NCBI GenBank assembly: GCA_041653035.1
Contig: JBAZGE010000002.1
Location: 17,451 to 81,450, forward strand
Reading direction: 5' to 3'
Source of the DNA: Candidatus Omnitrophota bacterium
Lineage (GTDB): Bacteria > Omnitrophota > Gorgyraeia > Gygaellales > Profunditerraquicolaceae
Length of the DNA: 64,000 nucleotides
In this document: positions 1,374 to 63,922 of the stretch, piece after piece
Layout of the letters: every line of letters begins with the position of its first letter
Numbering within the stretch: position 1 is the first letter of the stretch
Notes under the pieces: generated by a model
The model's input: the letters and a program-made list of their open reading frames with translations, nothing else
Databases searched by the model: none
Told to the model about the DNA's origin: nothing
Position numbers and translations under genes: made by a program

Positions 1374-2383
1374 CTTATAAGAAAGCGGGTGTTGATGTCC
1401 ACCGTATGGACGCGCTGAAGCGGCAGATGAAACCGCTGGTGCGCAGGTCATTCCGTCCGGAGGTTCTTAAAGATATAGGGAGTTTCGGGGCTTTTTTCAG
1501 GTTCCCAAAGGATAAATACCGTGATCCGGTGCTGGTTTCTTCCGCGGACGGCGTGGGCACGAAACTCAAAGTGGCGTATCTGTGCGGCAAACACGATACC
1601 GTGGGTATAGACGCGGTGGCTATGAATGTGAACGATATCCTGTGTACCGGCGCGGAACCGCTGTTTTTCCTGGATTATATCGCATTCAGTGATTTGCGGG
1701 ATACGGTCATTCTTGATATTGTTAAAGGCGTAAATACGGGTTGTGTGGAAGCGGATTGTTCTTTGATCGGAGGAGAGACCGCCCAGATGCCCGGTATGTA
1801 TAAGCCGGGCGAGTATGATATCGCGGGCTTTTGCGTGGGGTCGGGGGAGCGCGGCGCCGTCATTGACGGGTCACGGATACGTCCCGGGGACAAGGTCATT
1901 GGATTGGAGTCAAACGGCCTTCATTCGAACGGTTTTTCCCTGGTGCGTAAAGTCTTTTCGCAAAATGAGCTCAAACGGATGGGCAAAGAACTGCTCCGGC
2001 CTACCCGTATCTATGTTAAACCCGTCCGCTCTCTCTTACGCGATACGCGGTACGCGGTACGCGGTACTACGGTAGTTAAAGGTATCTCTCATATAACCGG
2101 AGGCGCGTTTTATGATAAAATAGCCAGGATACTGCCGGACACGGTGGACGTGCGCATTGATAAAAATTCCTGGAAAGTGCCGGAGATCTTTAAACTCATC
2201 CAGCTCAAGGGCAGGATTAAGGATGAGGAGATTTACCATACGTTGAATATGGGTATCGGCATGGTCCTGATCGCGGAAGCGGATGCCGCTCAGGCGGTGA
2301 CGAAGTTCTTATCCGGGCATAAACTCAAGTCTTGGATCATCGGAGAAGTTATAAAGGGAAAAGGGGAAGTGAAGGTGTTTTGA
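1361..2383 (+). CDS. purM: Phosphoribosylformylglycinamidine cyclo-ligase (AIR synthetase)
   Basis: MQEITYKKAGVDV... DGVGTKLKVA hallmark motifs. ATG at 1361 overlaps the purF stop by 13 nt. Confidence 0.9.
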   Translation: MQEITYKKAGVDVHRMDALKRQMKPLVRRSFRPEVLKDIGSFGAFFRFPKDKYRDPVLVSSADGVGTKLKVAYLCGKHDTVGIDAVAMNVNDILCTGAEPLFFLDYIAFSDLRDTVILDIVKGVNTGCVEADCSLIGGETAQMPGMYKPGEYDIAGFCVGSGERGAVIDGSRIRPGDKVIGLESNGLHSNGFSLVRKVFSQNELKRMGKELLRPTRIYVKPVRSLLRDTRYAVRGTTVVKGISHITGGAFYDKIARILPDTVDVRIDKNSWKVPEIFKLIQLKGRIKDEEIYHTLNMGIGMVLIAEADAAQAVTKFLSGHKLKSWIIGEVIKGKGEVKVF

Positions 2384-3371: not shown

Positions 3372-4673
3372 ATGAAAATATTAGTTATAGGTTCGGGAGG
3401 AAGGGAACACGCGCTGGTTTGGAAACTGTCGCAGTCTACGATGGTGGAAAAGATCTTTTGCGCGCCCGGCAACGCGGGTATCGCCGGCCAGGCAGAGAGT
3501 ATTAATATGAGGCCCGAGGATTTCGGGTGCCTGATCAGTTTCGCTAAACGGGAAAAAGTCGATCTCACGGTTGTCGGTCCGGAGGCTCCTCTGGCCGCGG
3601 GCATCGTGAATGAATTTACCAAGAATAAGTTGAAGATATTCGGGCCTTCCAAAGAGGCTGCCCGGCTTGAGGCGAGCAAAGTGTTTGCCAAGGAGATCAT
3701 GCGTAAATACCGGGTGCCGACTGCTGCTTTTGAGGTTTTTGATAATCCGTCCAAGGCGCGCAGATATATCGACCTTATCGGCACGCCCTGTGTTATAAAA
3801 GCCGACGGCCTTGCCGCCGGCAAGGGGGTTGTGGTTGCGAATACCCGGGAAGATGCTTTGAACGCGGTACAGGAAATGATGGAAGAACGGATTTTTGGGG
3901 ACGCGGGCAAGACGGTGATCATTGAAGAATGCCTTCGGGGTGAAGAAGCTTCCATTTTGGTGATCACTGATTCAGAAGCGGTTATTCCCCTGGCCACCAG
4001 CCAGGACCATAAAAGGGTTTTCGATAACGACCTGGGGCCGAATACCGGGGGCATGGGCGCGTATTCTCCCGCTCCGGTGGTCAGCGCGGAGTTGATGGAT
4101 GAGATCTTAAAGACTGTTATTTACCCGATGATCAACGGCCTTACCAAAGAGGGCATACAATACAAGGGGGTTTTATACGCCGGGGTAATGATCACCGAGA
4201 ACGGCCCCAAGGTTTTGGAGTTCAATGTGCGGTTCGGGGATCCTGAAACTCAGGTTATTCTGCCCCGTCTGCAATCCGATCTGGTGCGCATAATGCTGGC
4301 GGTAAGCGAGGATCGTCTCAGCGAGGTAACTTCTTCCGAGAAGATCGCCTGGGATCCGCGCGCCGGTGTATGCGTGGTGTTGGCTTCGGGTGGATATCCG
4401 GGAGAATATTCCAAAGAAGTGGATATCTACGGTCTTGACGATGTAGCCAAAATGCAGGATGTCATTGCTTTTCACGCCGGGACCAAGATGTCGATCATGC
4501 AAGACCAGCCTTCCCGCGTGGAGTATGTTACGAACGGCGGCAGGGTCCTGGGTATTACCGGGATCGGGAATACCATCAAAGATGCCCGGGATAGAGCATA
4601 TAGTGCGGTTGGAAAAATTCACTTTCGCGGCATGCATTGCCGGAAAGACATAGCGGCGCGGGCGATACGATAG
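3372..4673 (+). CDS. purD: Phosphoribosylamine--glycine ligase
   Basis: MKILVIGSGGREHALVWKL... is the classic PurD N-terminus with an ATP-grasp body. Confidence 0.9.
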   Translation: MKILVIGSGGREHALVWKLSQSTMVEKIFCAPGNAGIAGQAESINMRPEDFGCLISFAKREKVDLTVVGPEAPLAAGIVNEFTKNKLKIFGPSKEAARLEASKVFAKEIMRKYRVPTAAFEVFDNPSKARRYIDLIGTPCVIKADGLAAGKGVVVANTREDALNAVQEMMEERIFGDAGKTVIIEECLRGEEASILVITDSEAVIPLATSQDHKRVFDNDLGPNTGGMGAYSPAPVVSAELMDEILKTVIYPMINGLTKEGIQYKGVLYAGVMITENGPKVLEFNVRFGDPETQVILPRLQSDLVRIMLAVSEDRLSEVTSSEKIAWDPRAGVCVVLASGGYPGEYSKEVDIYGLDDVAKMQDVIAFHAGTKMSIMQDQPSRVEYVTNGGRVLGITGIGNTIKDARDRAYSAVGKIHFRGMHCRKDIAARAIR

Positions 4674-5176: not shown

Positions 5177-5185
5177 AATGTGTTA

Positions 5186-5284
5186 CTAAGGCATCGTTAG
5201 TTTCGTTAGTATCGTTAATTTCGTTATTCTCGTTTGACGCGTTGAACGAAAATAACGCAATTAACAAAAATAACGATACTACGA
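5186..5284. repeat. Imperfect about 95-bp palindrome built from 9-nt-periodic TCGTTA (left arm, x5) and TAACGA/AACGA (right arm, x5) repeats, abutting the start codon at 5285
   Basis: Read directly: TCGTTAGTT TCGTTAGTA TCGTTAATT TCGTTATTC TCGTT-TGACGCGTTGA-ACGAAAAT AACGCAATT AACAAAAAT AACGATACT ACGA ATG. Confidence 0.8.
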
Positions 5285-6358
5285 ATGTTTACAATGGCAC
5301 CCGCAAAAATAGTTAAGATTGATCTTCTTCAACCGGACGAAAAGATCCTCAAACAGGCCGCGGATATTGTTGCCGAAGGCGGGCTGGTGATCATCCCTAC
5401 TGAGACCGTGTACGGCATCGCCGCGAACGCTTCGAATAAGAATGCCCTGGAAAGGCTCTCTGCGGTTAAAGAACGGCCGGAAGGGAAGCCTTTTTCCCTG
5501 CATGTAGATTCCAAGGAAAAAATAGAAAAGATCGCTGATTCTATTCCGGCCGCGGCGTATAAACTTATGAATAAGTTCTGGCCCGGACCGTTAACAATTA
5601 TACTGCGGGCGAAAGACGGTAATACCGTCGGCGTGCGTATGCCGGATAACCGGGTGGCTTTACGGATTATCGCGCTGTCGGGAGTAGCGGTGGTGTGCCC
5701 TTCGGCGAATATCTCCGGCAGGCCGCCGCCAATCAATTTTCAGGAGGCCATTAAAGATCTTAAAGGCGCGGTTGACTTTGCTATCGATACCGGCGCGACG
5801 AAGCTGGGGGTTGAATCTACGGTTGTGGATATGACGGTTGAACCTTGCCGGGTTTTGAGGGAGGGGGCGGTCGGGAAAGAAGCCCTCGATGCAGTCACGC
5901 GTAAAAAGATCATCCTCTTCGTATGCACGGGGAATTCCTGCCGTTCGGTCATGGCCGAAGGTTTATTGAAGAAAAAACTGCAGGAACAGAACCGTCTTTC
6001 GGATATCGAGGTTTTGTCCGCGGGGTTGATGACCCCGGGAAATTCGGGGGCGACGGAAGAGACGGTGGAGATTATGAGGCGGGAAGGGATTGATGTTTCC
6101 CAGCACCGCTCCCGGAAACTTACCCGTGATCTTTTGAACATGGCGGATTTTATCCTGGTGATGGAGCGAGTTCATGAGGCACGGATCCGGGAAGCCGTTC
6201 CTCAGGTGAAGAACCGCTTGTTCCTTTTGAAAGAATTCGCGCGGCTGCGCAATAACCATTTTGATATTCCCGATCCCATCGGTAATTCCCTGGAGTATTA
6301 CGGGGAGACGTTCACCGTGATCCGGGAAGCGGTGAATAAAGTCGCGGAGATCCTGTAA
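5285..6358 (+). CDS. Fusion protein: L-threonylcarbamoyladenylate synthase (YrdC/TsaC/Sua5 domain) plus C-terminal low-molecular-weight protein phosphatase (YwlE-like) domain
   Basis: N-terminal about 200 aa is the YrdC fold (VIIPTETVYGIAANA). The C-terminal about 150 aa carries the LMW-PTP P-loop CTGNSCRS and the D-P motif. Single uninterrupted frame. Confidence 0.8.
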   Translation: MFTMAPAKIVKIDLLQPDEKILKQAADIVAEGGLVIIPTETVYGIAANASNKNALERLSAVKERPEGKPFSLHVDSKEKIEKIADSIPAAAYKLMNKFWPGPLTIILRAKDGNTVGVRMPDNRVALRIIALSGVAVVCPSANISGRPPPINFQEAIKDLKGAVDFAIDTGATKLGVESTVVDMTVEPCRVLREGAVGKEALDAVTRKKIILFVCTGNSCRSVMAEGLLKKKLQEQNRLSDIEVLSAGLMTPGNSGATEETVEIMRREGIDVSQHRSRKLTRDLLNMADFILVMERVHEARIREAVPQVKNRLFLLKEFARLRNNHFDIPDPIGNSLEYYGETFTVIREAVNKVAEIL

Positions 6359-6395
6359 GGGATGAAACAATCTGGAGCACCAGCGAGGTGAGTGT

Positions 6396-6857
6396 ATGGA
6401 GAAGCTTATTATCGGTTCGGATCACGCAGGGTTTAAACTGAAAGAGGAATTGAAACGGTATCTTGAAAAAAAAGGGATCCGGGTTGAAGACGCAGGGACA
6501 TATTCGGAAGAACGCTGTGATTATCCGCGGTACGCGGCGGCGGTCGCGGAAAAGGTTTCGGCAGGCAGGGTTAAAAAAGGGATCCTGATCTGTATGACCG
6601 GGATCGGGAATTCTATCGTGGCTAACCGGTTCCCCGGCGTGCGCGCTTCCCTGTGCTGCAATATAAAGGCGGCGCGTCTTACCCGCGAGCATAACGACAG
6701 TAATGTTCTGGTCCTGGGGGCGGCATTCATTGACGGGAATCTGGCCAAGAGGATCGTGCAGGTATGGTTACATACTTCCTTTGCGGGAGGCAGGCATGCC
6801 CGGAGGCTGAATCTTATTAAAAAGATTGAACGTACGATAAGGAGTAAGAAGAGATGA
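6396..6857 (+). CDS. rpiB: Ribose-5-phosphate isomerase B (RpiB/LacAB family)
   Basis: [19 protein letters not shown]... canonical RpiB N-terminus. Confidence 0.85.
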
Positions 6858-8095
6858 AGTATTTGAAGAAGGTTGATCCGGAGATATACGCGTCTATCGA
6901 GAAAGAGCTCGCGCGGCAGCGCGATAACCTGGAGTTGATCGCTTCCGAGAATTTTACTTCCCCGGCGGTTCTCGAGGCCCAAGGATCGGTTTTGACCAAC
7001 AAATACGCCGAAGGGTATCCGCACCGGAGATGGTACGGTGGATGTGAATTTGTGGATGAAGCCGAGCACTTGGCTCTTCAGCGGGTAAAAGAACTTTTCG
7101 GCGCGGAGTACGCCAATGTACAGCCGCATTCCGGCACCCAGGCCAATATGGCGGTATTTTTTACGCTTCTGGCGCCGCGTGATACGTATATGGCCATGGA
7201 TCTGGCTTGCGGCGGGCATCTTTCTCACGGGCTTGCGCATAATTTTTCCGGTATGTTCTATACCGTTGTCCCGTACGGCGTAGACAGGAAGACTGAAACC
7301 ATCGATTACGACCAGATCGAGGCTAAGGCAAAGGAATGTAAACCGAAGATGATACTTGCCGGCGCTTCCGCGTATCCCCGGCAGTTCGATTTCAAAAGAC
7401 TGCGGCAGATCTGCGATAAAACCGGCAGTTATCTGTTCGTGGACATGGCACACATAGCCGGACTGGTGGCCGCGGGATTGCATCCTTCGCCGGTGCCGTA
7501 CGCAGATATCGTCAGTTCTACGACGCATAAGACTTTGCGCGGGCCGCGCGGTGGATTTATCCTGGCAAAAAAAGAATTCGCGAAAAAAATAGACTCCCTG
7601 GTTTTTCCCGGGATACAGGGAGGGCCCTTGATGCATGTTATTGCCGCGAAGGCCGTTGCTTTTCTGGAGGCAAAAAGCGAGGAATTCAAAGCGTATCAGG
7701 GACAGGTGGTGAAAAATTCCCGCCGTATGGCTTCCGGCCTGCAGGAAAAGGGATTTCGTATCGTCAGCGGCGGGACCGATACGCATCTCCTGCTGGCTGA
7801 TCTGACCTCCAAGAATATTACCGGTAAAGAGGTTTCCGCCTTGCTTGAAAAAGTCAATATTACGGTGAATAAAAATCTCATTCCTTTTGATGTCTTGCCT
7901 CCTGCTTCTGCCAGCGGCGTGCGGCTGGGTACCCCCGCGGTCACCACCCGGGGGATCAAAGAGAAGGAGATCGATATGATCGTTGATTTTATAGACAGGG
8001 CTCTGTCCGCCCGTGACGCCGAGGACAAACTGCAGGCGATAAAGAAAGAAGTCCTGGCGTTGACGAAGAAGTTTCCGCTGTACCCGGAACTATAA
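6854..8095 (+). CDS. glyA: Serine hydroxymethyltransferase
   Basis: [31 protein letters not shown] and the PLP-lysine region ([12 protein letters not shown]). Stop/start overlap with rpiB. Confidence 0.95.
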
Positions 8096-8105
8096 GAGGT
8101 TGAGA

Positions 8106-8573
8106 ATGAAAAAACGTAAGATTGAGTCAAAGCGGATCAGCTGGGACGAGTACTTCATGCAGATCGCTTCCCTGGTTGCCCAGCGGAGCACCTGTGTCCG
8201 CCGGCATGTTGGTGCGGTGGTGGTCAAGGATAAACGCATGCTGGCTACCGGTTACAACGGGGCGCCCAGCGGCATCAGGCATTGTTCGGAGATCGGCTGT
8301 CTCCGTGAGAAACTAAAGATACCGTCGGGACAGCGGCATGAACTGTGCCGCGGCCTGCACGCGGAGCAGAACGCGATCATCCAGGCTTCTTTGTACGGCG
8401 TAAGCGTGAGAGACAGCGTTTTGTATATCACCAACCAGCCCTGCATTATATGCGCGAAGATGATCATTAATGCCGGTATCGGGGAGATCGTTATTTTAGA
8501 CGGTTATCCGGATGAAATGGCGATGCGTTTCCTGAAAGAAGCCGCAGTGAAGATCAGAAAAATGAAGAAATAA
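8106..8573 (+). CDS. dCMP (CMP/dCMP-type) deaminase
   Basis: Zinc-binding HAEQNAI ... [14 protein letters not shown] motifs. AGAGG Shine-Dalgarno 6 nt before the ATG at 8106. Confidence 0.85.
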
Positions 8574-8574
8574 T

Positions 8575-9051
8575 ATGAAATGTCCTTTTTGCGGTTACAA
8601 GGAAGATAAAGTCGTTGATTCACGCGCCACGCAGGATGAAGTCGCGATCCGGAGAAGACGGGAATGCCTGCGGTGCGGCAAGCGTTTTACCACCTACGAA
8701 TACATTGAAGAGCCGTCCATCATGGTGATCAAAAAAGACGGCCGGCGCCAGCCGTTCGACCGCAAAAAAGTCCTGGCCGGGGTCATGAAGGCCTGTGAGA
8801 AACGGCCGATCAGCATGGACAAGATGGAAGACGTTATCCTGCAGGTTGAACGCGCGATCCAGAAAAAGGTGGGTAAGGAAGTTCCTACTTCCAAGATCGG
8901 CGAATTGGTGATGGAAAAGTTGAAAGAGCTCGATGAAGTGGCTTACGTGCGTTTTGCTTCGGTGTACCGGCAGTTCAAGGATGTGGGGCAGTTCATGGAT
9001 GAATTGAAAGGTATTATCAAACGGGAAAGAAGAAGGGGCGGGGATAGATAG
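8575..9051 (+). CDS. nrdR: Transcriptional repressor NrdR (zinc-ribbon plus ATP-cone)
   Basis: MKCPFCGYKEDKVVDSRATQDEVAIRRRRECLRCGKRFTTYE is near-canonical NrdR. Confidence 0.95.
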   Translation: MKCPFCGYKEDKVVDSRATQDEVAIRRRRECLRCGKRFTTYEYIEEPSIMVIKKDGRRQPFDRKKVLAGVMKACEKRPISMDKMEDVILQVERAIQKKVGKEVPTSKIGELVMEKLKELDEVAYVRFASVYRQFKDVGQFMDELKGIIKRERRRGGDR

Positions 9052-9107
9052 CCGGTGCGCTGTCCATCAAAATTAATATAACGGCGCACTACGCGGAGGA
9101 GCCGGAT

Positions 9108-9518
9108 ATGATCGAGATGGAATTGAACAAGATAGTGATTGACGAGAAAAGGCACGATCAGTTGATTGTTTTAAAGGAAAAAAGCGGGAGCCGTCTTTTG
9201 CCTATCGTGATCGGCTTGAATGAGGCTTCGGCAATCAAACTGAAGCTGAGCGGATTCCAACCTCCCCGGCCGCTTACCCATGATCTTCTCTGTTCCGCCA
9301 TACAGAGCCTGGATGCTGTTATCGATAAGATCGTGATCGATAAGTTGGAAGATAATACGTTCCACGCCAAAATAATCGTTAAGACCGAAACCGGCAAGAT
9401 AAAGATAGTCGATGCCCGTCCTTCCGATAGCATCGCGTTATCGGTGCGCACGCAGGCGCCTATTTTCGTGGAAGAGGCTGTTTTGAACCAAATGGATGTA
9501 TTTAATCCCGAAAAATGA
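9108..9518 (+). CDS. Bifunctional nuclease family protein (BFN/DUF151)
   Basis: IVLKEKSGSRLLPIVIG..EA.AI...L....PPRPLTHDL pattern typical of BFN-domain proteins. Confidence 0.7.
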   Translation: MIEMELNKIVIDEKRHDQLIVLKEKSGSRLLPIVIGLNEASAIKLKLSGFQPPRPLTHDLLCSAIQSLDAVIDKIVIDKLEDNTFHAKIIVKTETGKIKIVDARPSDSIALSVRTQAPIFVEEAVLNQMDVFNPEK

Positions 9519-9988
9519 AGATCGGTATTCTTTCCGATACGCACGATAACCTGTCCCAGGTAGAAAAAGCGGTGATTTTTTTTAACCGTAAAAAAACCGG
9601 TTTTGTTTTTCACGCCGGCGATTTTGTCGCGCCTTTTACCGTACTCAGGCTGAAAGAACTTTTCTGTCCCTGGCAGGGGGTATTCGGCAATAACGACGGG
9701 GAAAAAAAAGGTTTGCGCTTGGTATCCGAAGGAAAGATCGGTCCCGGCCCGCTCCGGCTGAGCGCCGCGGGTACGGATATTGTCGTAGTCCATGATATCC
9801 AAACGCTTGATCTCAAAAAAGAGAAGGCGCGGCTGATCATTTTCGGCCATTCGCATAAGCCGGAGATTATCAATGAACCCGGCCGGCTCTTGGTCAATCC
9901 CGGAGAGTGCGGAGGGTGGCTGACCGGCAGATCAACGGTTGCCGTCGCGGATACGGAGAAAATGTCCGCCCGCATATTTACCCTATAA
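9515..9988 (+). CDS. YfcE/MJ0936-family metallophosphoesterase
   Basis: MKIGILSDTHDN...FHAGDF...GNNDGE...HDI...GHSH calcineurin-like motif series. Confidence 0.8.
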   Translation: MKIGILSDTHDNLSQVEKAVIFFNRKKTGFVFHAGDFVAPFTVLRLKELFCPWQGVFGNNDGEKKGLRLVSEGKIGPGPLRLSAAGTDIVVVHDIQTLDLKKEKARLIIFGHSHKPEIINEPGRLLVNPGECGGWLTGRSTVAVADTEKMSARIFTL

Positions 9989-10002
9989 AAATTGTTACAT
10001 AT

Positions 10003-10089
10003 TTCGTTAATCCCCTCCGCGCTCTTTTAAGATTTGGGCGGAATCAACGATATTAACGATATTAACGGAACCAACGACAATAACGATCC
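10003..10089. repeat. Array of five 9-nt-periodic AACGA repeats (AACGATATT AACGATATT AACGGAACC AACGACAAT AACGATCC) immediately preceding the start codon at 10090, with one upstream TCGTTAA
   Basis: Read directly. Same repeat unit and phasing as the 5186-5284 element. Confidence 0.8.
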
Positions 10090-11562
10090 ATGAGCATTTC
10101 TCCCGAATGGTTATCTAAGAACCGCCGGTTTCTGCAAGCCATCCTTGCTGTCGCGGCGAAGAAAAAAAAGACCCTCTACCTGGTGGGGGGGATCCTCCGC
10201 GACTCCTTTCTGAAACGGGAAAGAGAAAATCCTGATATTGATTTTTGCCTTAAACGGGGCGCTATCGCGCTGGCCGGAGAAACGGCCAAAGTATTGCGGG
10301 CGGGGTTTGTCGTTTTGGACGAAGAACACGGGTGCGGCCGGGTGGTGAAGAAAATGGGACGGCAGGTGTATACTTTTGATTTTACCGATTTCCGCGGTAA
10401 AGACCTCGCGGAAGATCTTCTTCACCGTGATTTCACCGTGAACAGTATGGCAATGGAACTGGAGGCTTTATTTCGTGCAAAGAAAATTTCCAATGGTCTG
10501 CTTATTGATCCGTGGGGAGGCCTCCGCGATATCCGTTCTCGTACCATCCGCCTGGTGCATAAAGACGGGTTCGACGAAGATCCGTTACGGATCCTGCGCG
10601 CGTTCAGTTTTGCCGCGCTGCTGGGGTTTCAGATCGAAGAGGGAACGTTGAAGCTGGCCTGTTCGAAACGCGGCAAGATCGCTTCCGTTTCCGGGGAGCG
10701 GATACGCGATGAATTTTTTAAGATTTTATCAACGCAACGGACGTACGATTTTCTGTGCCGGCTCGATAAATACGGGATCCTGGAGCTTCTTTTCCCCGAA
10801 ATAGTGCCCATGCGTACTATGAAACAAGGGGCGTATCATCATTTGGATGTGTGGGGGCATACCCTGGAGACAGTCAGGCATCTGGAGCTGTGCGTAAAAA
10901 GTTTCGAAAGGAAGCCGGAGATAAGCGCGTATCTGGAAGAGGAAATATCTTTCGGGCGCCGCCGGCGCGAACTGTTAAAACTGGCCGCCCTTTTGCATGA
11001 CATAGGGAAGCCGAAAACCCTGCGCGTCGAAAAGGGGAAAGTGCAGTTTCACGGGCACGAACGGGTGGGGTCGCAGATGTTCAGGGATGTCGGAGAGCGC
11101 ATGAAACTTTCCAATGAAGAGGTGCGGTTGATACGGCAGATAATTTTTCTGCATCTGCGTCCGGGGTATCTGGTGACTAATGCAATGGTCACGCCGCGCG
11201 CGAAATTCAGATTCTTCCGTGACGCGGGCACAGAGGCGGCCGGTATACTCCTGCTTTCACTGGCGGATCAGCGTGCTACCAAGGGGTATCCGATGCTTGA
11301 AAAAACGCGCGGCCGCCACGAGCGGACCGGGCAGGCTTTGATCCGGGAATATTTCCATAAGCAGAAAGAGGAGAAACTCGAACGTCTGGTGAACGGGCAT
11401 GATATCATAAAAGCGTTCAGCCTGGGATCGTCGCCGGTGATCGGGAAAATTTTAAGAGATCTGGAAGAGTTACAGGCGATCGGAAAAATCAAGACTAAAG
11501 AGGAGGCGTTACGAACCGCTGCCAAATTGCTGCAAAAACATTCTCCTTCGCAAAAGAAATGA
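10090..11562 (+). CDS. cca: CCA-adding tRNA nucleotidyltransferase (class II PolA-like head plus HD domain)
   Basis: LYLVGGILRDSFLKRE..DIDF nucleotidyltransferase motif. HD domain (HHLDVWGHTL ... LHDIGK). Confidence 0.7.
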   Translation: MSISPEWLSKNRRFLQAILAVAAKKKKTLYLVGGILRDSFLKRERENPDIDFCLKRGAIALAGETAKVLRAGFVVLDEEHGCGRVVKKMGRQVYTFDFTDFRGKDLAEDLLHRDFTVNSMAMELEALFRAKKISNGLLIDPWGGLRDIRSRTIRLVHKDGFDEDPLRILRAFSFAALLGFQIEEGTLKLACSKRGKIASVSGERIRDEFFKILSTQRTYDFLCRLDKYGILELLFPEIVPMRTMKQGAYHHLDVWGHTLETVRHLELCVKSFERKPEISAYLEEEISFGRRRRELLKLAALLHDIGKPKTLRVEKGKVQFHGHERVGSQMFRDVGERMKLSNEEVRLIRQIIFLHLRPGYLVTNAMVTPRAKFRFFRDAGTEAAGILLLSLADQRATKGYPMLEKTRGRHERTGQALIREYFHKQKEEKLERLVNGHDIIKAFSLGSSPVIGKILRDLEELQAIGKIKTKEEALRTAAKLLQKHSPSQKK

Positions 11563-31117: not shown

Positions 31118-31725
31118 TATTTATTATGATTCTTTAACAGGTTAAAAAATCCCAGCAAGAGACCTATTACCAGCAAAGCCCCTGCGGGCAGGCCGATCAT
31201 TAGGATCGGTTCGAATCCGCGTATGACCAGGAAATTGAAAAACCTTCCGAATCCCAAAATTTCGCGTATCCCGCAAATAAGCAGCAGTGCCAGCGTGAAG
31301 CCGATCCCCATGCCGATACCGTCCAGGATGGAAGAGAATACCGAGTTTTTGGAAGCGAATGCTTCAGCCCTGCCCAGCACCATACAGTTGACCACAATGA
31401 GAGGTACGTATATACCCAGCGCGCGGTTTAATCCCGGGCTGTAGGCTTTTAAGGTCATTTCCGCGATGGTGACAAACGTGGCAATGACCACGATATAACA
31501 GGGGATGCGTATCTCCGCCGGGATGAATTTTTTGATCAGGGAAATAATAATATTGGAACCCAGCAATACAAAAGTGGCGGTTATGCCCATGCCTAACCCG
31601 TTGGTCATGGACACGGAAACCGCCAGCGCAGGGCAAAGCCCCAGCGCGAGCACAAAGATAGGGTTCTCACGTATGACGCCCTTGATAAGTTCCGTAACCG
31701 CCTGATTATTTTTTCTGTCAGTCAT
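31117..31725 (-). CDS. rnfE: Rnf complex subunit E
   Basis: LGLCPALAVS..., IYVPLIVVNCMVLGRAEAFA motifs as in RsxE. Confidence 0.9.
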   Translation of the reverse strand: MTDRKNNQAVTELIKGVIRENPIFVLALGLCPALAVSVSMTNGLGMGITATFVLLGSNIIISLIKKFIPAEIRIPCYIVVIATFVTIAEMTLKAYSPGLNRALGIYVPLIVVNCMVLGRAEAFASKNSVFSSILDGIGMGIGFTLALLLICGIREILGFGRFFNFLVIRGFEPILMIGLPAGALLVIGLLLGFFNLLKNHNK

Positions 31726-31743
31726 GTTTGTTCGTGTGTTCGC

Positions 31744-31770
31744 GTGTTTGTGTGTTTGTGTGTTTGTGTG
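31744..31770. repeat. Hexanucleotide simple-sequence repeat (GTGTTT/TGTGTT)x about 4.5 inside the 87-bp rnfD-rnfE intergenic spacer, bracketed by inverted repeat GTGTTCGCGTGTT (31734-31746) / AACACGCGAAC (31802-31812)
   Basis: Read directly. On the transcribed strand the leader of rnfE is CA-rich (AACACACAAACACACAAACACAC...). Confidence 0.8.
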
Positions 31771-31812
31771 TTCTCGTGTTCTTGCGAACTTAAGAACGCG
31801 CGAACACGCGAA

Positions 31813-59633: not shown

Positions 59634-62600
59634 ATGATACAAAGCTTTAATAACAAAACCGAAAAAGCCGGCGATGATTTTAAAAAGAACCTCGGTAAAG
59701 ACAGCCGTTTACAAGTCGCGGCTGGTATTTTTACGATATATGGGTTTGAATGTCTCAGCGCCGAATTGAAAAAGATCGATAAATTGAATTTTATTTTCAC
59801 AGATCCCACTTTCATCGAAGTTGACAAAAATCGGCGCGAAAAGAAACAATTTCAAATCAAGGCCGACTTCCGGCAAAAAGCTATCAGCGGATCAGAGTTT
59901 GAAATACATTTAAAGAATGAACTCAAGGGGAAGGCGATCGCAAGGGAATGCAAAAAATGGATTGAGGAGAAAGCATCTTTTAAGGCAAATATTGCCAATA
60001 AATATATCCAGCCGCATATAACCCTTGAGAACGGTGAGAATAAATATGTGTACATGGGGATTAATGAATTTAGCAGTGCCGGGTTCGGCTACGAAAAAGA
60101 CAATTCCGTTCTGCATCAGATAATTAAGACAGACGATTATGAAGCAACTAAGCAGTACATCCAAAACTTTGAAGAAGTATGGAATGATGAAAAGATAGTA
60201 AAGAACGTAACCGACGAGGTTCTCGGATATATCGCGGACCTTTATAAGGAAAACTCCCCGGAATTTATCTATTACTTGACGCTCTATAATATTTTTGATG
60301 AGTTTTTGGAGGACATTTCCGAGGATGAACTCGCAAATGAGAAAACCGGCTTTAAGAATTCTGTAATTTGGAACAAGCTCTACGATTTTCAAAAAGACGC
60401 CGCTTTAGGAATTGTTAACAAATTAGAACGGCATAATGGGTGTATTCTTGCAGATAGTGTTGGCCTCGGGAAAACTTTTTCAGCCATAGCTGTCATTAAA
60501 TATTATCAGGAGAGAAACCGCACTGTACTCGTGCTTTGTCCGAAAAGGCTGGGAGATAATTGGCGGACTTTCTTGAACAATTATGATGACAATCCCTTGT
60601 TTAGGGATCGCTTGAATTATCATGTCCTGTATCACACGGATTTATCCAGAGATCAGGGGCAATCAAACGGTATTGATCTGTCCAGAGTCAATTGGGGTAA
60701 TTATGATCTGGTCGTGATCGATGAATCGCATAATTTTAGAAATAATGACCCTCGAAAAGATAGAGTGACACGATACCAGAGACTGCTGAACGATGTCATG
60801 AAGGCCGGGGTTAAGACAAAAGTTCTTATGCTTTCAGCGACGCCGGTCAACAACAGGTTTACGGACTTAAAAAATCAGATCGCTCTGGCCTGTGAAGGCG
60901 AAACAAATATTGCTGACGGGAGGATGGATACAGATAAATCGATTGATACCATACTGACAAATGCGCAGAGGGTTTTCAATGATTGGTCAAAATTGCCGGT
61001 TGAAGAACGCACCAGTCAAGAGTTGTTGAAGCGGCTTAATGCGAATTTTGATTTCTTCAAGTTGCTTGACAGCGTCACAATAGCCCGAAGCCGGAAACAT
61101 ATAGAAAAGTATTACGATATCAATAAGATCGGGAAATTTCCCAACAGGTTAAAACCGATTACCCACCACGCCGATATTACAGACCTTGAAGGGTTTATTG
61201 AAATATCGGAGCTTTACAAAGAACTCTCAAGGTTGTCAATGGCCATCTACTCTCCGACTGAATATATTTTGGACAGCAAGCGGCAATTTTATAGCGATCT
61301 TTATGATACAAAGCTGGAACAGGCAAGCTTTAAGCAGGCCCATCGCGAGAAGAACCTCCAAACCCTTATGAGGGTAAATTTCCTTAAACGGCTTGAAAGT
61401 TCAGTGGATTCATTCAGGATCACTCTTGGCAAATTTATCAGTGAGATCGAGCGGATTATCAATAAGATTGGGGAGTTCGAAAAAAACGGGGCTCAAGGAT
61501 CGGTTGAGGCTATTCAGTTCGGCGATATCAATCTCGATGCTGATAGTGACGACTGGTTAAACGATGAATTTAGCGTCGGAGGTAAGGTTAGGGTTAACTT
61601 GGAGGATATGAATACAACAGGGTGGAAGCAGGATTTGGAGGCCGATGTTTTTGTTGCCAACGCAATATTCAGAGAGATGGAAAAGGTAACCCCCGAACAT
61701 GATACGAAACTCCGAGATCTGAAAGCATTCATCAAAAACAAGCTGAGATCCCCTGTCAATCCCGGAAATAGAAAAATTCTGATATTCAGTGCTTTTGCGG
61801 ATACGGTGAATTATCTATACGAAAATCTTGCCGGGTACAATAAAACGCTTGGCCTTGAGACCGCAAAATTGACAGGATCAGATGAGAACAAGACCACACT
61901 AAAGTTAAACAACAACTTCAATAATATTCTGATCAATTTCTCCCCGCGATCCAAGGAGCGCAGAGATAAGTCAGCCCCGGAAATAGACATCTTAATAGCG
62001 ACGGACTGTATTTCCGAAGGGCAGAACCTGCAGGATTGCGACATGCTGATTAATTATGATATTCATTGGAATCCAGTGCGCATTATTCAGCGGTTTGGCC
62101 GTATAGACAGGATCGGGTCAACGAATAAAGATATTCAGCTGGTCAACTTCTGGCCGCAGTTATCCCTTGATGATTATATAAATCTGAAAAACCGGGTTGA
62201 AAACAAGATGTTTATCGTCGATGCGACAGCAACCGGTGAAGATAACGTTCTGACCAATAAATCTTCGGATCTGTTATTTAGGAAGAAACAGCTGGAAAGA
62301 TTGCAGGAAGAGGTTGTTGATATCGAAGATATGGGCTCAGGCGTTTCAATTACCGATCTAGGGCTGAATGATTTCCGCATGGATTTAGTGAACTACATCA
62401 AAGAGAATGGAAGTCTTGCGAACGTTGCTAATGGGATGCATGCGGTTTGCAAAAAAGACATAGAGCGTGGTATAGAAGAAGGAGTTATTTTTGTTTTAAA
62501 AAATATAAACAACGAAGTAAATATTGATAAAACCAATCAGCTTCATCCGTTTTATTTAGTGTACATAACTGCCAATGGGGAGATTTCTTCAAATCATTTG

Positions 62601-62876
62601 GACGTGAAAACCACGCTGGATATCCTTCGCGCGCTTTGTAAAGGCAACAGCGAACCCCTAAAAGACGTATACGAAGTGTTTAACGATGAGACTGACGACG
62701 GCAAGAATATGGCCAAGTATTCCGGATTGCTGAACAAGGCTATCGAATCCGTGCTTCATGTGAAGGATGAAAGCGACGTGGACAGTCTTTTTACGGCGGG
62801 AGGCACCACCGCGCTCATGAACAATATAAAGGGCCTTGAGGATTTTGAACTTTTGACTTTTGTGGTGATCAAATAA
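59634..62876 (+). CDS. SNF2-family (SF2, DExH) helicase, 1080 aa, with uncharacterised about 240-aa N-terminal and about 250-aa C-terminal domains
   Basis: Motif I LADSVGLGKT, II VIDESHNFRN, III LSATPVNN, VI QRFGRIDRIGS. Confidence 0.85.
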   Translation: MIQSFNNKTEKAGDDFKKNLGKDSRLQVAAGIFTIYGFECLSAELKKIDKLNFIFTDPTFIEVDKNRREKKQFQIKADFRQKAISGSEFEIHLKNELKGKAIARECKKWIEEKASFKANIANKYIQPHITLENGENKYVYMGINEFSSAGFGYEKDNSVLHQIIKTDDYEATKQYIQNFEEVWNDEKIVKNVTDEVLGYIADLYKENSPEFIYYLTLYNIFDEFLEDISEDELANEKTGFKNSVIWNKLYDFQKDAALGIVNKLERHNGCILADSVGLGKTFSAIAVIKYYQERNRTVLVLCPKRLGDNWRTFLNNYDDNPLFRDRLNYHVLYHTDLSRDQGQSNGIDLSRVNWGNYDLVVIDESHNFRNNDPRKDRVTRYQRLLNDVMKAGVKTKVLMLSATPVNNRFTDLKNQIALACEGETNIADGRMDTDKSIDTILTNAQRVFNDWSKLPVEERTSQELLKRLNANFDFFKLLDSVTIARSRKHIEKYYDINKIGKFPNRLKPITHHADITDLEGFIEISELYKELSRLSMAIYSPTEYILDSKRQFYSDLYDTKLEQASFKQAHREKNLQTLMRVNFLKRLESSVDSFRITLGKFISEIERIINKIGEFEKNGAQGSVEAIQFGDINLDADSDDWLNDEFSVGGKVRVNLEDMNTTGWKQDLEADVFVANAIFREMEKVTPEHDTKLRDLKAFIKNKLRSPVNPGNRKILIFSAFADTVNYLYENLAGYNKTLGLETAKLTGSDENKTTLKLNNNFNNILINFSPRSKERRDKSAPEIDILIATDCISEGQNLQDCDMLINYDIHWNPVRIIQRFGRIDRIGSTNKDIQLVNFWPQLSLDDYINLKNRVENKMFIVDATATGEDNVLTNKSSDLLFRKKQLERLQEEVVDIEDMGSGVSITDLGLNDFRMDLVNYIKENGSLANVANGMHAVCKKDIERGIEEGVIFVLKNINNEVNIDKTNQLHPFYLVYITANGEISSNHLDVKTTLDILRALCKGNSEPLKDVYEVFNDETDDGKNMAKYSGLLNKAIESVLHVKDESDVDSLFTAGGTTALMNNIKGLEDFELLTFVVIK

Positions 62877-62903
62877 TTGTGAATGGTGAGTTATGAATTA
62901 TAA

Positions 62904-63272
62904 ATGGGTAAAATTATGAGAGAAAACGTTATAAAGAATAAGAGTTTTAATTTTGCACTGAGGATTGTGAATCTATTTAAGTTTTTGCAGGATAAGAAGG
63001 AATTTGTGCTGTCAAAGCAGATCTTGAGAAGTGGGACAGCCGTTGGGGCTATGGTTCGGGAAGCGGAACACGCTGAAAGCAAAGCCGATTTTATTCATAA
63101 AATGTCAATCGCCCAAAAGGAAGCAAATGAAACTTTGTATTGGTTGGAGCTTTTATATCAATCAGATTATTTAGAAAAAAACATGTTTGACTCGGTGGAA
63201 TCGGATTTAATCGAAATACAAAAATTGCTTTCATCAATTCTTATCAGTTCTAAAGCTAAGGTGAATGAATGA
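62904..63272 (+). CDS. Four-helix-bundle protein (23S rRNA intervening-sequence-protein family)
   Basis: FNFALRIVNLFKFL....EFVLSKQILRSGTAVGAMVREAEHAESKADFIHKMSIAQKEANETLYWLELL matches the family pattern; such genes are commonly embedded in restriction-modification operons. Confidence 0.7.
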   Translation: MGKIMRENVIKNKSFNFALRIVNLFKFLQDKKEFVLSKQILRSGTAVGAMVREAEHAESKADFIHKMSIAQKEANETLYWLELLYQSDYLEKNMFDSVESDLIEIQKLLSSILISSKAKVNE

Positions 63273-63922
63273 AGGATTCACAATTTACAATTCATAATTT
63301 ACCATTACCAAAAGAGGCTTTTGTAAATAAGTTTATCGCCAAGACTAAGTTTTACGAAAAGGCGGCTTTAGGGGCAAAGTTACAGAAAGAATTTATAGAT
63401 AAAATTCAAAAGATCACATGGAAATATAAACTGGCGGAAAGCACCATAGGCATCACAAAGACAGCCAAGGTGACCGAGATACAGATATTTGAAATTGAGC
63501 TTAAAGAGCAAGTGATACCCAAAAATGTCTTACGGATCATTGATAAAACGATTCCTTATCAGATATTGTACCGGTTTATTTATAAAGAAAATGTCGCCTA
63601 TGCGGTCACATTAAAAGAGAGCGGTATAGAGAATTATTATTTTTCCGGCTGGAATGAGGGCAAGAGCTTTGATTTTACCGGCATTGATCTGGAGAAGGTG
63701 TACCAGAAGATCATCAAGGCGTTTATAACAAGTGAGGCAAAAGCAAAAACCAGTTTCAATGAAATTATAGACACCGACAATAAGATAAAAGCGATAGAAA
63801 ACGAGATAACCGCTTTAGAGAGCAAAATATCAAAAGAAAAGCAGTTTAACCGCAAGGTTGAGCTGAACAAAATATTGCTGGAGAGAAAAGCCCAGCTTAA
63901 GAAGATTAAAGAGGAGTTATAA
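63269..63922 (+). CDS. DUF4391-like protein
   Basis: Identification from memory of the family and its recurrent helicase/methyltransferase neighbourhood, not from a search. About 217 aa, C-terminal coiled coil. Start overlaps the previous stop by 4 nt. Confidence 0.45.
   Translation: MKDSQFTIHNLPLPKEAFVNKFIAKTKFYEKAALGAKLQKEFIDKIQKITWKYKLAESTIGITKTAKVTEIQIFEIELKEQVIPKNVLRIIDKTIPYQILYRFIYKENVAYAVTLKESGIENYYFSGWNEGKSFDFTGIDLEKVYQKIIKAFITSEAKAKTSFNEIIDTDNKIKAIENEITALESKISKEKQFNRKVELNKILLERKAQLKKIKEEL

Follow-up and report, generated by a model that had tools for sequence, protein, structure and literature searches.

Phased repeat arrays before sua5 and cca in an Omnitrophota genome are probably ORF-less copies of an insertion cassette

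Introduction

In a 64,000-nt stretch of a Candidatus Omnitrophota genome (the window), the spacers before two tRNA-maturation genes, a tsaC-like sua5 gene and cca, end in tandem 9-nt repeats that run directly into the start codon. The locus raises the question of whether such arrays regulate the genes behind them or are elements of another origin. The initial annotation had proposed a dedicated cis-regulatory element for tRNA maturation. The analysis described here instead favors, with a probability of roughly 0.7, the reading that both arrays, termed W1 and W2, derive from an insertion cassette as copies without an ORF, IVS- or STRR-like hairpin insertions in operon spacers.

Arrays upstream of sua5 and cca

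W1 lies between purE (AIR carboxylase, Pfam PF00731; 4637 to 5176, forward strand) and a TsaC-type gene in which Pfam recognizes a Sua5/YrdC domain fused to an LMW phosphatase (5285 to 6358, forward strand) and whose homologs are, by their source names, from Omnitrophota. The G/T-rich 5' arm (5194 to 5243, forward strand) holds five TCGTTAnnn units, with TCGTTA at 5194, 5203, 5212, and 5221 and TCGTTT at 5230, followed by a degenerate sixth unit, GACGCGTTG, that doubles as a 9-nt loop. The A/C-rich 3' arm (5244 to 5284, forward strand) keeps the 9-nt period, with AACGA at 5245, AACGC at 5254, AACAA at 5263, AACGA at 5272, and ACGA at 5281, and ends at the ATG at 5285. The two arms pair in the predicted RNA fold (−39.2 kcal/mol, z = −5.2), and both the phased TCGTTAnnn/TAACGAnnn arrays filling this spacer and the imperfect palindrome of about 95 bp are as the initial annotation had described them. 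A second ATG at 5294, 9 nt past the array, may be where sua5 truly begins, judging by relatives whose proteins start with MALTK.. or MATTK...

W2 occupies the spacer between a metallophosphoesterase gene and cca, a gene with PolyA_pol and HD domains of the CCA-adding/poly(A) polymerase family (10090 to 11562, forward strand). Its 3' arm (10046 to 10089, forward strand) consists of five (C/T)AACGAnnn units in phase, with AACGA at 10046, 10055, 10073, and 10082 and AACGG at 10064, flush against the ATG at 10090. Alone on the 5' side stands a residual unit, TTCGTTAAT (10003 to 10011, forward strand), which pairs with AUUAACGGAA in the RNA fold; the spacer as a whole has no significant fold (z = −0.3) and, unlike W1, no palindrome. 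The repeat phasing and the identities of both downstream genes agree with the earlier description.

Searching the window for AACGAN4AACGA with at most one mismatch gave 15 matches against 4.9 expected, 11 of them in the W1 and W2 spacers. A motif-agnostic repeat detector (at least four units and at least five invariant columns) was positive in the 64 kb at the W1 and W2 spacers, at 31725 to 31784, and at 2035 to 2068, and nowhere else; shuffled sequence produced 0 to 1 hits. W1 and W2 are, as first proposed, the same kind of element, an SD-less leader reaching the start codon. The accompanying claim that most other genes have strong GGAGG sites did not survive a count, as a Shine-Dalgarno-like 4-mer was present at only 15 of 56 ORF starts (27%), or at no more than 28 of 56 when any nearby in-frame start was allowed. 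At its gathering threshold, Rfam recognized only two tRNAs in the window, with no rRNA and no family match for the arrays.

Orthologous junctions in related genomes

A leader dedicated to coregulating the tsaC-like gene and cca, whether through a protein, a tRNA, or its own structure, would fit the shared motif, period, flush ATG junction, and missing SD site at both genes, although SD sites are commonly absent in this window. Such a conserved leader RNA should be present upstream of orthologs across species, and the arrays are not. At the syntenic locus L122 (Sua5 83% identity), the purE-sua5 spacer is 40 bp long and contains no array, and the 18-bp spacer before cca has two units only, against five in the window. 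At L124 (Sua5 85% identity), the purE-sua5 spacer carries a different repeat, CCTATAGCC. In eight of nine other Omnitrophota loci with >50% Sua5 identity, purE abuts or overlaps sua5, and most of the more distant Omnitrophota lack the array. Downstream of glyA, L122 also carries a GAGCT-type element at a position that in the window is a spacer of 4 nt.

Elsewhere, TAACGA arrays were found in other genomes upstream of Obg-, NusB-, RpsN-, LigT/ThpR-, PurE-, and HemL-like genes, and within Omnitrophota, other genomes have identical arrays before an obg-like and a nusB-like gene. Some of these targets (obg-like, nusB-like, rpsN-like, LigT) are related to translation or RNA, as a tRNA leader might predict, but purE, hemL, and an rnfE-like gene (see below) are targets as well, the arrays have no Rfam match, and their arms belong to a gene cassette. 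The dedicated leader is largely refuted by missing conservation and is in our judgment very improbable; on the cassette reading, the position of W1 and W2 before two tRNA-maturation genes is coincidental.

The elements are lineage specific in their presence, and whole units are gained and lost; for example, the orthologous elements at L119 and L062 differ by an exact two-unit (18-nt) indel. Two TAACGA copies occur in the 64 kb, and the Omnitrophota MAGs JBAZKL01 and CAZPNW01 have at least three pattern matches each. Some matches taken as related are unrelated, because the bare pattern of three TAACGAN3 units is common everywhere in coding repeats and VNTRs.

PF05635 cassettes with inverted repeat arms

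At two loci selected from the DNA pattern alone (L023 and L061), inverted TCGTTA/TAACGA arms bracket a gene of the PF05635/TIGR02436 family, which encodes a four-helix-bundle protein of ~125 amino acids. In the reverse test, four loci selected by protein homology alone (L325 from Omnitrophica, L331, L327, and L326) all had such arms, those of L326 with a GTTTAG/CTAAAC core that is not TAACGA-like. Genes annotated as "four helix bundle protein" with inverted 7- to 8-nt arms were also found in Nostoc (two), Riemerella, Bernardetia, and Treponema. Among 12 independent PF05635 loci from at least six phyla, arrays flanked both sides in 11 and the downstream side in all 12, compared to 6 of 148 control ORFs with arrays on both sides; five of the 12 loci had TAACGA-like arms. 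One cassette, L341, is antisense to its neighboring genes.

Duplexes between the two arms were predicted in six of seven cassettes (z = −3.0 to −6.6), and whole-cassette folds of L325 (z = −3.9) and L331 (z = −3.4) placed the terminal arms in a stem around the ORF. The arms of W1 and W2 are identical in kind to these cassette arms and are predicted to pair; their unit consensus equals the cassette-arm consensus at positions that the search had left free. The motif comes close to the generic repeat that the initial annotation had named as its counter-case, but its association with gene starts, which that counter-case denied, is real.

No transposase was recognizable in the cassettes, the ORF-bearing form encoding the PF05635 protein alone, and neither a reverse transcriptase nor a template/variable repeat pair was present beside any cassette examined. 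Across nine elements, no flanking direct repeat exceeded shuffle expectation as a target-site duplication. The W1 flanks, AATGTGTTAC and AATGTTTAC, are suggestive of one at most.

W3 and W4 in the same window

W3 is an ORF-less element on the reverse strand (31726 to 31812) with a predicted hairpin (z = −6.2). Its 5' arm (31782 to 31812) is made of 8-nt units of the GTTCGCGT type directly past the stop codon of an rnfD-like gene, and its 3' arm (31726 to 31781) has seven (G/A)AACACNN units with a period of 8, flush with the ATG at 31725 of an rnfE-like gene that has no SD site. W3 shares the build of W1 and W2 with a different core.

W4 (62877 to 63306, forward strand) is a full cassette. Its 5' arm of TGTGAAT, GTGAGTT, and ATGAATT units (62877 to 62903), which fell below the threshold of the repeat detector, lies upstream of a PF05635/TIGR02436 gene (62904 to 63272) for an Avd-like four-helix-bundle protein of the 23S rRNA IVS type (Pfam E = 1.3e-28; NCBIfam E = 1e-29; PDB 2RLD, five chains, E = 7e-40). 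The 3' arm, ATTCACA ATTTACA ATTCATA ATTTACC with a period of 7 (63276 to 63306), overlaps the first ~12 codons of a DUF4391 ORF, and the two arms are predicted to pair with each other (z = −3.4). The window thus contains one full cassette and three ORF-less elements, W1, W2, and W3; when all its ORFs were scanned with HMMs, the one in W4 was the only PF05635-type ORF.

Slippage and protein-binding explanations

Ordinary VNTRs born by slippage in A/T-rich spacers, resembling cassettes by chance and having no common origin or function, would account for the whole-unit indels, for the two-unit version before cca in L122, and for the abundance of period-9 TAACGA repeats in unrelated DNA, including that of giant viruses. 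The spacers between cores are variable, however, and the arrays are therefore not recent slippage copies. Core, period, inverted layout, and a comparable loop-like center (GACGCGTTG versus GACGCCTTA) recur in different Omnitrophota genomes, the A/C-rich reading of the units faces outward in 18 of 18 elements, and the window has four elements against 0 to 1 in shuffles. We consider chance resemblance of this kind improbable.

Somewhat less improbable, but still unlikely, is the proposal that the phased units serve beyond a mere stem. They would be sites in DNA, single-stranded DNA, or RNA to which a multimeric protein binds, the most plausible candidate being the four-helix-bundle protein, which is pentameric and positively charged. 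The arrays would then act as an operator or as a platform for assembly or recognition, for instance in spread or in the control of neighboring genes. The conserved core and varying spacers look like selection on the core, and in one protein clade spanning three phyla TAACGA-like arms and ORF occur together in five of six cassettes. About five units are frequent in the arrays, family members are known as five-chain PDB entries, and Avd forms a positively charged, pentameric barrel contacting a specific RNA element (10.1101/2023.10.23.563531). On the other hand, arrays contain 4 to at least 12 units, with unequal numbers in the two arms, and L326 has a differing core at the same protein distance, showing that the core can vary within one clade. 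The protein encoded by W4 falls into a different clade, whose arms are also different, so that no cognate protein for TAACGA arms was seen in the 64 kb, and Coxiella probably does not produce its S23p protein in vivo at all (PMC4990558).

Proposed mechanism and significance

Shared core, period, and architecture suggest that W1, W2, and W3 descend from cassettes. Mobility of the elements is suggested by their patchy distribution only, because there is neither a consistent target-site duplication nor a known transposase.

Under the insertion-cassette reading, the cassettes occupy operon spacers and are predicted to be cotranscribed with the flanking genes. W1 would have retained both arms as a 95-nt hairpin, whereas of the 5' arm of W2 hardly anything would be left. 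In a transcript, the arms could pair into a long stem and be cut there by RNase III, as in a classical IVS, and the cistrons on either side would thereby be uncoupled. Facing outward, the 3' arm, A/C-rich, G-poor, and predicted to be unable to fold on itself, would act as an unstructured SD-less leader for the downstream gene. A structure-based role at the RNA level is our best guess for the arrays.

A wider version of this reading is tentative and less likely than not. PF05635 genes with repeat arms might be widespread, unrecognized selfish intercistronic elements ("IVSs of messenger RNAs") of which rRNA IVSs would be a special case, with the window arrays and many STRR hairpins as nonautonomous, ORF-less derivatives; a pentameric Avd-like protein might recognize the phased repeats as RNA or single-stranded DNA and aid processing or spread.

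The evidence ties 23S rRNA IVSs, the S23p/four-helix-bundle family, and STRR hairpins into one cassette architecture, which at least six phyla have in spacers of their operons; the three had been described separately and without explanation for decades. Function becomes testable through RNase III mapping, protein-arm binding, and expression of flanking genes. The arrays imitate regulatory leaders and can supply or displace start-codon contexts and, in W4, even N-terminal codons; they should not be annotated as regulons.

Comparison with known systems

The closest known system is the 23S rRNA IVS of Coxiella burnetii and Leptospira, in which a four-helix-bundle ORF of ~125 amino acids is enclosed by a long stem of terminal inverted repeats. 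In Coxiella, the stem is 28 bp, RNase III excises the IVS, the S23p ORF lies inside, and the 5' arm has tandem heptamers whose copy number differs from strain to strain (PMC4990558). The folds of the L325 and L331 cassettes reproduce this architecture, the L119/L062 indel and the two units of L122 against five in the window parallel the copy-number variation, and stable stems are predicted for W1, W3, and the W4 arms, although not for W2. Distribution is patchy and selfish looking in both systems, and ORF-less forms occur in both, many IVSs having no ORF. IVSs differ in sitting in helix 25 or 45 of the rRNA, whereas protein-coding genes flank all four elements of the window; cassette arms consist almost wholly of phased 7- to 9-nt units; the ORF is present in W4 but absent from W1, W2, and W3; and excision by RNase III, demonstrated for IVSs, would here follow from a predicted stem of sufficient length.

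STRRs are likewise intergenic or intercistronic short tandem repeats capable of forming hairpins, for example, between hupS and hupL of cyanobacteria, where an effect on the transcript was suggested (PMC2670836). Arrays of precisely this kind, with 7- and 8-nt units, border the Nostoc four-helix-bundle genes examined here, and the literature searched contained no link between STRRs and PF05635 genes. STRRs usually have a 7-bp period, as in W4, while W1 and W2 have a period of 9 (six core positions plus a variable 3-nt spacer) and W3 one of 8, and STRRs are known from filamentous or heterocystous cyanobacteria rather than Omnitrophota.

Avd of diversity-generating retroelements is related in fold and family: according to published descriptions, PF05635 resembles Avd and the two are apparently homologous (PMC10053308), and the Avd barrel, which contacts structured RNA, is "similar to S23 ribosomal proteins" (10.1101/2023.10.23.563531). 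Unlike Avd, the cassettes examined stand alone, with no retroelement parts beside them.

MITEs and REP/BIME elements share with W1 and W3 (about 95 and 87 bp) the form of small, imperfect palindromes of ~100 bp with inverted arms, located in operon spacers, with several copies per genome and presence/absence differences between close relatives. The ORF-less and ORF-bearing forms resemble a MITE and its parent. Unlike in MITEs, target-site duplication is not consistent and the arms are tandem arrays instead of unique terminal inverted repeats, and the ORF-bearing partner has no recognizable transposase or RAYT.

SD-independent, A/C-rich translational leaders are known from TMV omega, with its ACAAUUAC repeats and CAA tract, and from CA-repeat enhancers. 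By analogy only, the 3' arm is similarly repeated, A/C-rich, and G-poor and abuts the start codon of an SD-less gene; in W1 and W3, however, a stem is predicted to sequester this arm as long as the transcript is not processed.

Phased repeat arrays in two operon spacers

The spacers upstream of sua5 and cca both contain 9-nt-phased arrays whose sequence checks out as first described in the initial annotation. Between purE and sua5, an array of five TCGTT(A/T) units with 9-nt spacing (5194–5235) is faced by AACGA-type units in mirror-image order (5245–5284), which stop at the ATG at 5285, and homology with relatives indicates that the sua5 start may be the second ATG, at 5294. Ahead of cca, five (C/T)AACGAnnn units (10046–10089) continue in register up to the ATG at 10090, with a single TTCGTTAAT at 10003. 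AACGAN4AACGA, allowing at most one mismatch, occurs 15 times in the window compared to 4.9 expected, with 11 of the 15 matches in these two spacers. A motif-agnostic detector placed phased repeats at only four places in 64 kb, versus 0–1 in shuffled sequences. RNA folding agreed with the palindrome claimed for the sua5 spacer, predicting a strong hairpin (−39.2 kcal/mol, z = −5.2); the cca spacer had no significant predicted fold (z = −0.3).

The arrays had been proposed to lack Shine-Dalgarno (SD) sites where most other genes carry GGAGG. This distinction did not hold, as only 27–50% of window ORF starts have an SD-like motif ahead of them, making an SD-less start unexceptional. A promoter reading was set aside, as no sigma-70-like site was present in the arrays, and the search for a known RNA family gave no match. 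Possible resemblances to an H-NS nucleation site, LytTR, omega/MetJ/ParR-type operators, and the epsilon enhancer gained no support.

The sua5 spacer element is flanked by a near-identical direct repeat, AATGTGTTAC (5177-5186) and AATGTTTAC (5284-5292), which includes the ATG. This could be a target-site duplication with a copied start codon. As an exact match the repeat is not significant (p about 0.2), none like it was seen at the other elements, no consistent target-site duplication was found across elements, and no transposase accompanies them.

Arrays are not conserved at sua5 or cca in relatives

Pfam searches bore out the identities of the downstream genes, a Sua5/YrdC–LMW-phosphatase fusion and a PolyA_pol plus HD enzyme, on which the proposal of a dedicated cis-regulatory element for tRNA-maturation genes was based. 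Such a leader should be conserved at its genes. Sua5 homologs came from sources labeled Candidatus Omnitrophota, and one locus (L001) was identical to the window, so that the search for strain-level variation found none there. The closest relative on a long contig (L122; Sua5 identity, 83%) shares its gene order with the window over a stretch that runs from purine-synthesis genes upstream, via cca, to a CheC-like gene, with a 40-bp purE–sua5 spacer lacking any array and an 18-bp spacer before cca, acgagaaTAACGAcacatATG, equal to two units. At 85% identity, L124 has another repeat between purE and sua5, CCTATAGCC, and most of the more distantly related Omnitrophota have a purE stop codon that abuts or overlaps the start of sua5. 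Absence or replacement of the array in these genomes shows that spacer content is lineage specific, and leaves the reading of a tRNA-maturation regulon unsupported.

Other insertions were also seen. L122 carries a pair of inverted GAGCT-type arrays behind glyA, a position at which the window has a spacer of 4 nt. Another Omnitrophota contig (L131, about 90-200) carries a ~110-nt insertion of a different kind at the purE-sua5 junction, a conventional inverted repeat (gtcattctgaagg ... cctcagaatgac) without phased units. Insertions seem to have landed at this junction repeatedly.

Short tandem DNA repeats also occur within coding sequence. In PurM, repeats with periods that are not multiples of 3 fall in one hypervariable loop in three loci, immediately before a ..KGI(A/S)HITGG motif and with a core that differs per lineage: TACGCGG x4 in the window (2035-2068, in the purM-like ORF at 1322-2383), ACTAAGA with period 7 in L125 (5616-5649), and CGCGAACT with period 8 in L133 (2478-2515). 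The PurM loop of L122 is 7 residues longer at this site, and an in-frame GAGCACCG-type repeat (x4, period 8) lies within the purQ-like GATase coding region of this closest relative (4046-4082).

Inverted arrays flank PF05635 genes

Two loci picked through the DNA pattern only, L023 (Planctomycetota, between purQ and purE) and L061 (WOR-3), had inverted arms separated by a ~125-amino-acid ORF. Both ORFs belong to PF05635, "23S rRNA-intervening sequence protein" (E = 1e-30 and 3e-26, respectively), and to TIGR02436, "four helix bundle protein." In the reverse test, homologs were selected on protein similarity alone before their contigs were examined. Over all loci combined, arrays were present on both sides of the PF05635-family gene in 11 of 12 cases and downstream in 12/12, compared to 6 of 148 control ORFs from the same loci with arrays on both sides.

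Among the homologs chosen by protein, L325 (Omnitrophica), L331, and L327 have an upstream TCGTTA-type array and a downstream TAACGA-type array beginning from or over the stop codon, and in L331 the terminal …TAACGAATAAATG is flush against the ATG of the next gene. L326 (Omnitrophota) is arranged in this way too, its units being GTTTAG/CTAAAC. Inverted 7–8-nt tandem arrays also surround each of the plasmid genes annotated as "four helix bundle protein" in Nostoc punctiforme, Nostoc edaphicum, Riemerella, Bernardetia, and Treponema, every cassette having its own core. Pairing of the arms across the ORF was predicted in six of seven cassettes (z = −3.0 to −6.6), and the ends of the full L325 and L331 cassettes were paired around the ORF in both MFE and centroid structures.

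Gene tables and ORF calls placed the cassette ORF codirectional with the downstream gene in 11/12 cases. The exception, on Nostoc edaphicum plasmid pNe_5 (L341, 1501-1869), reads antisense to its neighbors, a pair of ribonucleotide reductase genes that both lie on the strand opposite to the four-helix-bundle ORF.

Within a clade of proteins at least 55% identical and spanning three phyla, TAACGA-like arms occurred in five of six cassettes, and distant clades had unrelated cores, which argues that the ORF and arms travel as a unit. A strict protein-to-core code was rejected because L326 has another core at equal protein distance. Arrays contain 4 to at least 12 units, with counts that are not equal in the two arms, so the idea that five units match a pentamer is speculation. 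In 18/18 elements, the units read A/C-rich in the outward direction, a polarity that is intrinsic to the element and identical on both strands. A G/T-rich 5' arm and A/C-rich 3' arm were thus discarded as a sign of orientation to transcription.

An HMM built from the four-helix-bundle family recovered a full cassette in the window itself (62877–63306). Its ORF (62904–63272) matches Pfam (E = 1.3e-28), NCBIfam (E = 1e-29), and PDB 2RLD (E = 7e-40), with a TGTGAAT-type upstream arm, seen by eye and below the detector threshold, and an ATTCACA-type downstream arm. An SNF2-type helicase (59634-62876) lies on one side and a DUF4391 gene on the other, which looks like a restriction/defense-type pair. 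The cassette ORF stop overlaps the next ATG (ATGA), and the 3' arm supplies the N-terminal ~12 residues of the DUF4391 ORF (MKDSQFTIHNLP..), whose Pfam match starts at residue 12.

Elements without an ORF

The detector also found an element on the minus strand between rnfD-like and rnfE-like genes (31726–31812). Read on that strand, a GTTCGCGT-type arm is followed by seven (G/A)AACACNN units up to the ATG, without an SD site (predicted fold z = −6.2). The window therefore contains four elements of one architecture, one with a gene and three without.

Period-9 TAACGA arrays in other Omnitrophota metagenome-assembled genomes (MAGs) have the same stop–arm–loop–arm–ATG layout, between L21-like and obg-like genes (L068) and between ribH-like and nusB-like genes (L119 and its ortholog L062). 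The L119 and L062 elements differ by exactly two 9-nt units adjoining the ATG. The ribH-like and nusB-like genes and the element of L062 are near-identical to those of L119, from Omnitrophota MAG JBAZKL01; CAZPNW01 (L014, L050, and L062), labeled "uncultured Planctomycetales," is probably a mislabeled Omnitrophota member.

At L039 (4685-4772), a six-unit TAACGA array followed immediately by a ATAGACCAA-type array (x4) into a hemL-like ATG is a compound element with two different cores. Identical-unit arrays of TAACGAAGC (x3-9) stop one base short of the ATG at several Patescibacteria/Saccharibacteria genes (L009, 2572-2603, 6159-6235, and 7694-7725; L091, 3483-3505; L098, 1020-1051), preceded in L091 and L098 by inverse units, GCTTCATTA. 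These CPR arrays appear to have the same stop-arm-arm-ATG build.

Most listed matches to TAACGAN3TAACGAN3TAACGA were coding repeats or identical-unit VNTRs, and viral contigs also matched. Taxonomic breadth of the bare pattern was therefore dropped as evidence, and the analysis relied only on arrays that were intergenic, inverted, and variable in their spacers.

Proposed mechanism

The best explanation of the window arrays is that they belong to an IVS-/STRR-like family of hairpin insertions with repeat arms, as members that lack an ORF. Established for these elements are their architecture, the link between ORF and arms, predicted arm pairing, patchy presence among close relatives, and evolution by gain or loss of whole units. 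In the proposed mechanism, the arms would pair within the operon transcript and be cut by RNase III, as for rRNA intervening sequences (IVS), and the A/C-rich, G-poor 3' arm could give the gene downstream an unstructured leader that has no SD site. ORF-less forms would derive from cassettes. Of most value is the general association of PF05635 genes with inverted short-tandem-repeat arms, which is directly testable.

Relation to known systems

In Coxiella burnetii, helix 45 of 23S rRNA contains an IVS described as selfish, which carries an S23p ORF of the PF05635 family and has in its 5′ arm tandem GACAGAT heptamers in strain-dependent copy number (PMC4990558). The Xanthomonas homolog is a homopentameric toroid (2GSC; PMC4990558), an entry also matched by the L023 protein. 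PF05635 is described as similar to the DGR accessory protein Avd and as its apparent homolog (PMC10053308). Avd forms a positively charged, pentameric barrel in contact with a specific RNA element (10.1101/2023.10.23.563531). Cyanobacterial STRR are hairpin-capable tandem repeats, usually of 7 bp, found, for example, between hupS and hupL, with unknown function (PMC2670836). A literature search found, within the library covered, no paper tying PF05635 genes to flanking tandem repeats or STRR, which is not proof of novelty. The window arrays combine features of both the IVS and STRR but lie in Omnitrophota operon spacers and are built from 9-nt units.
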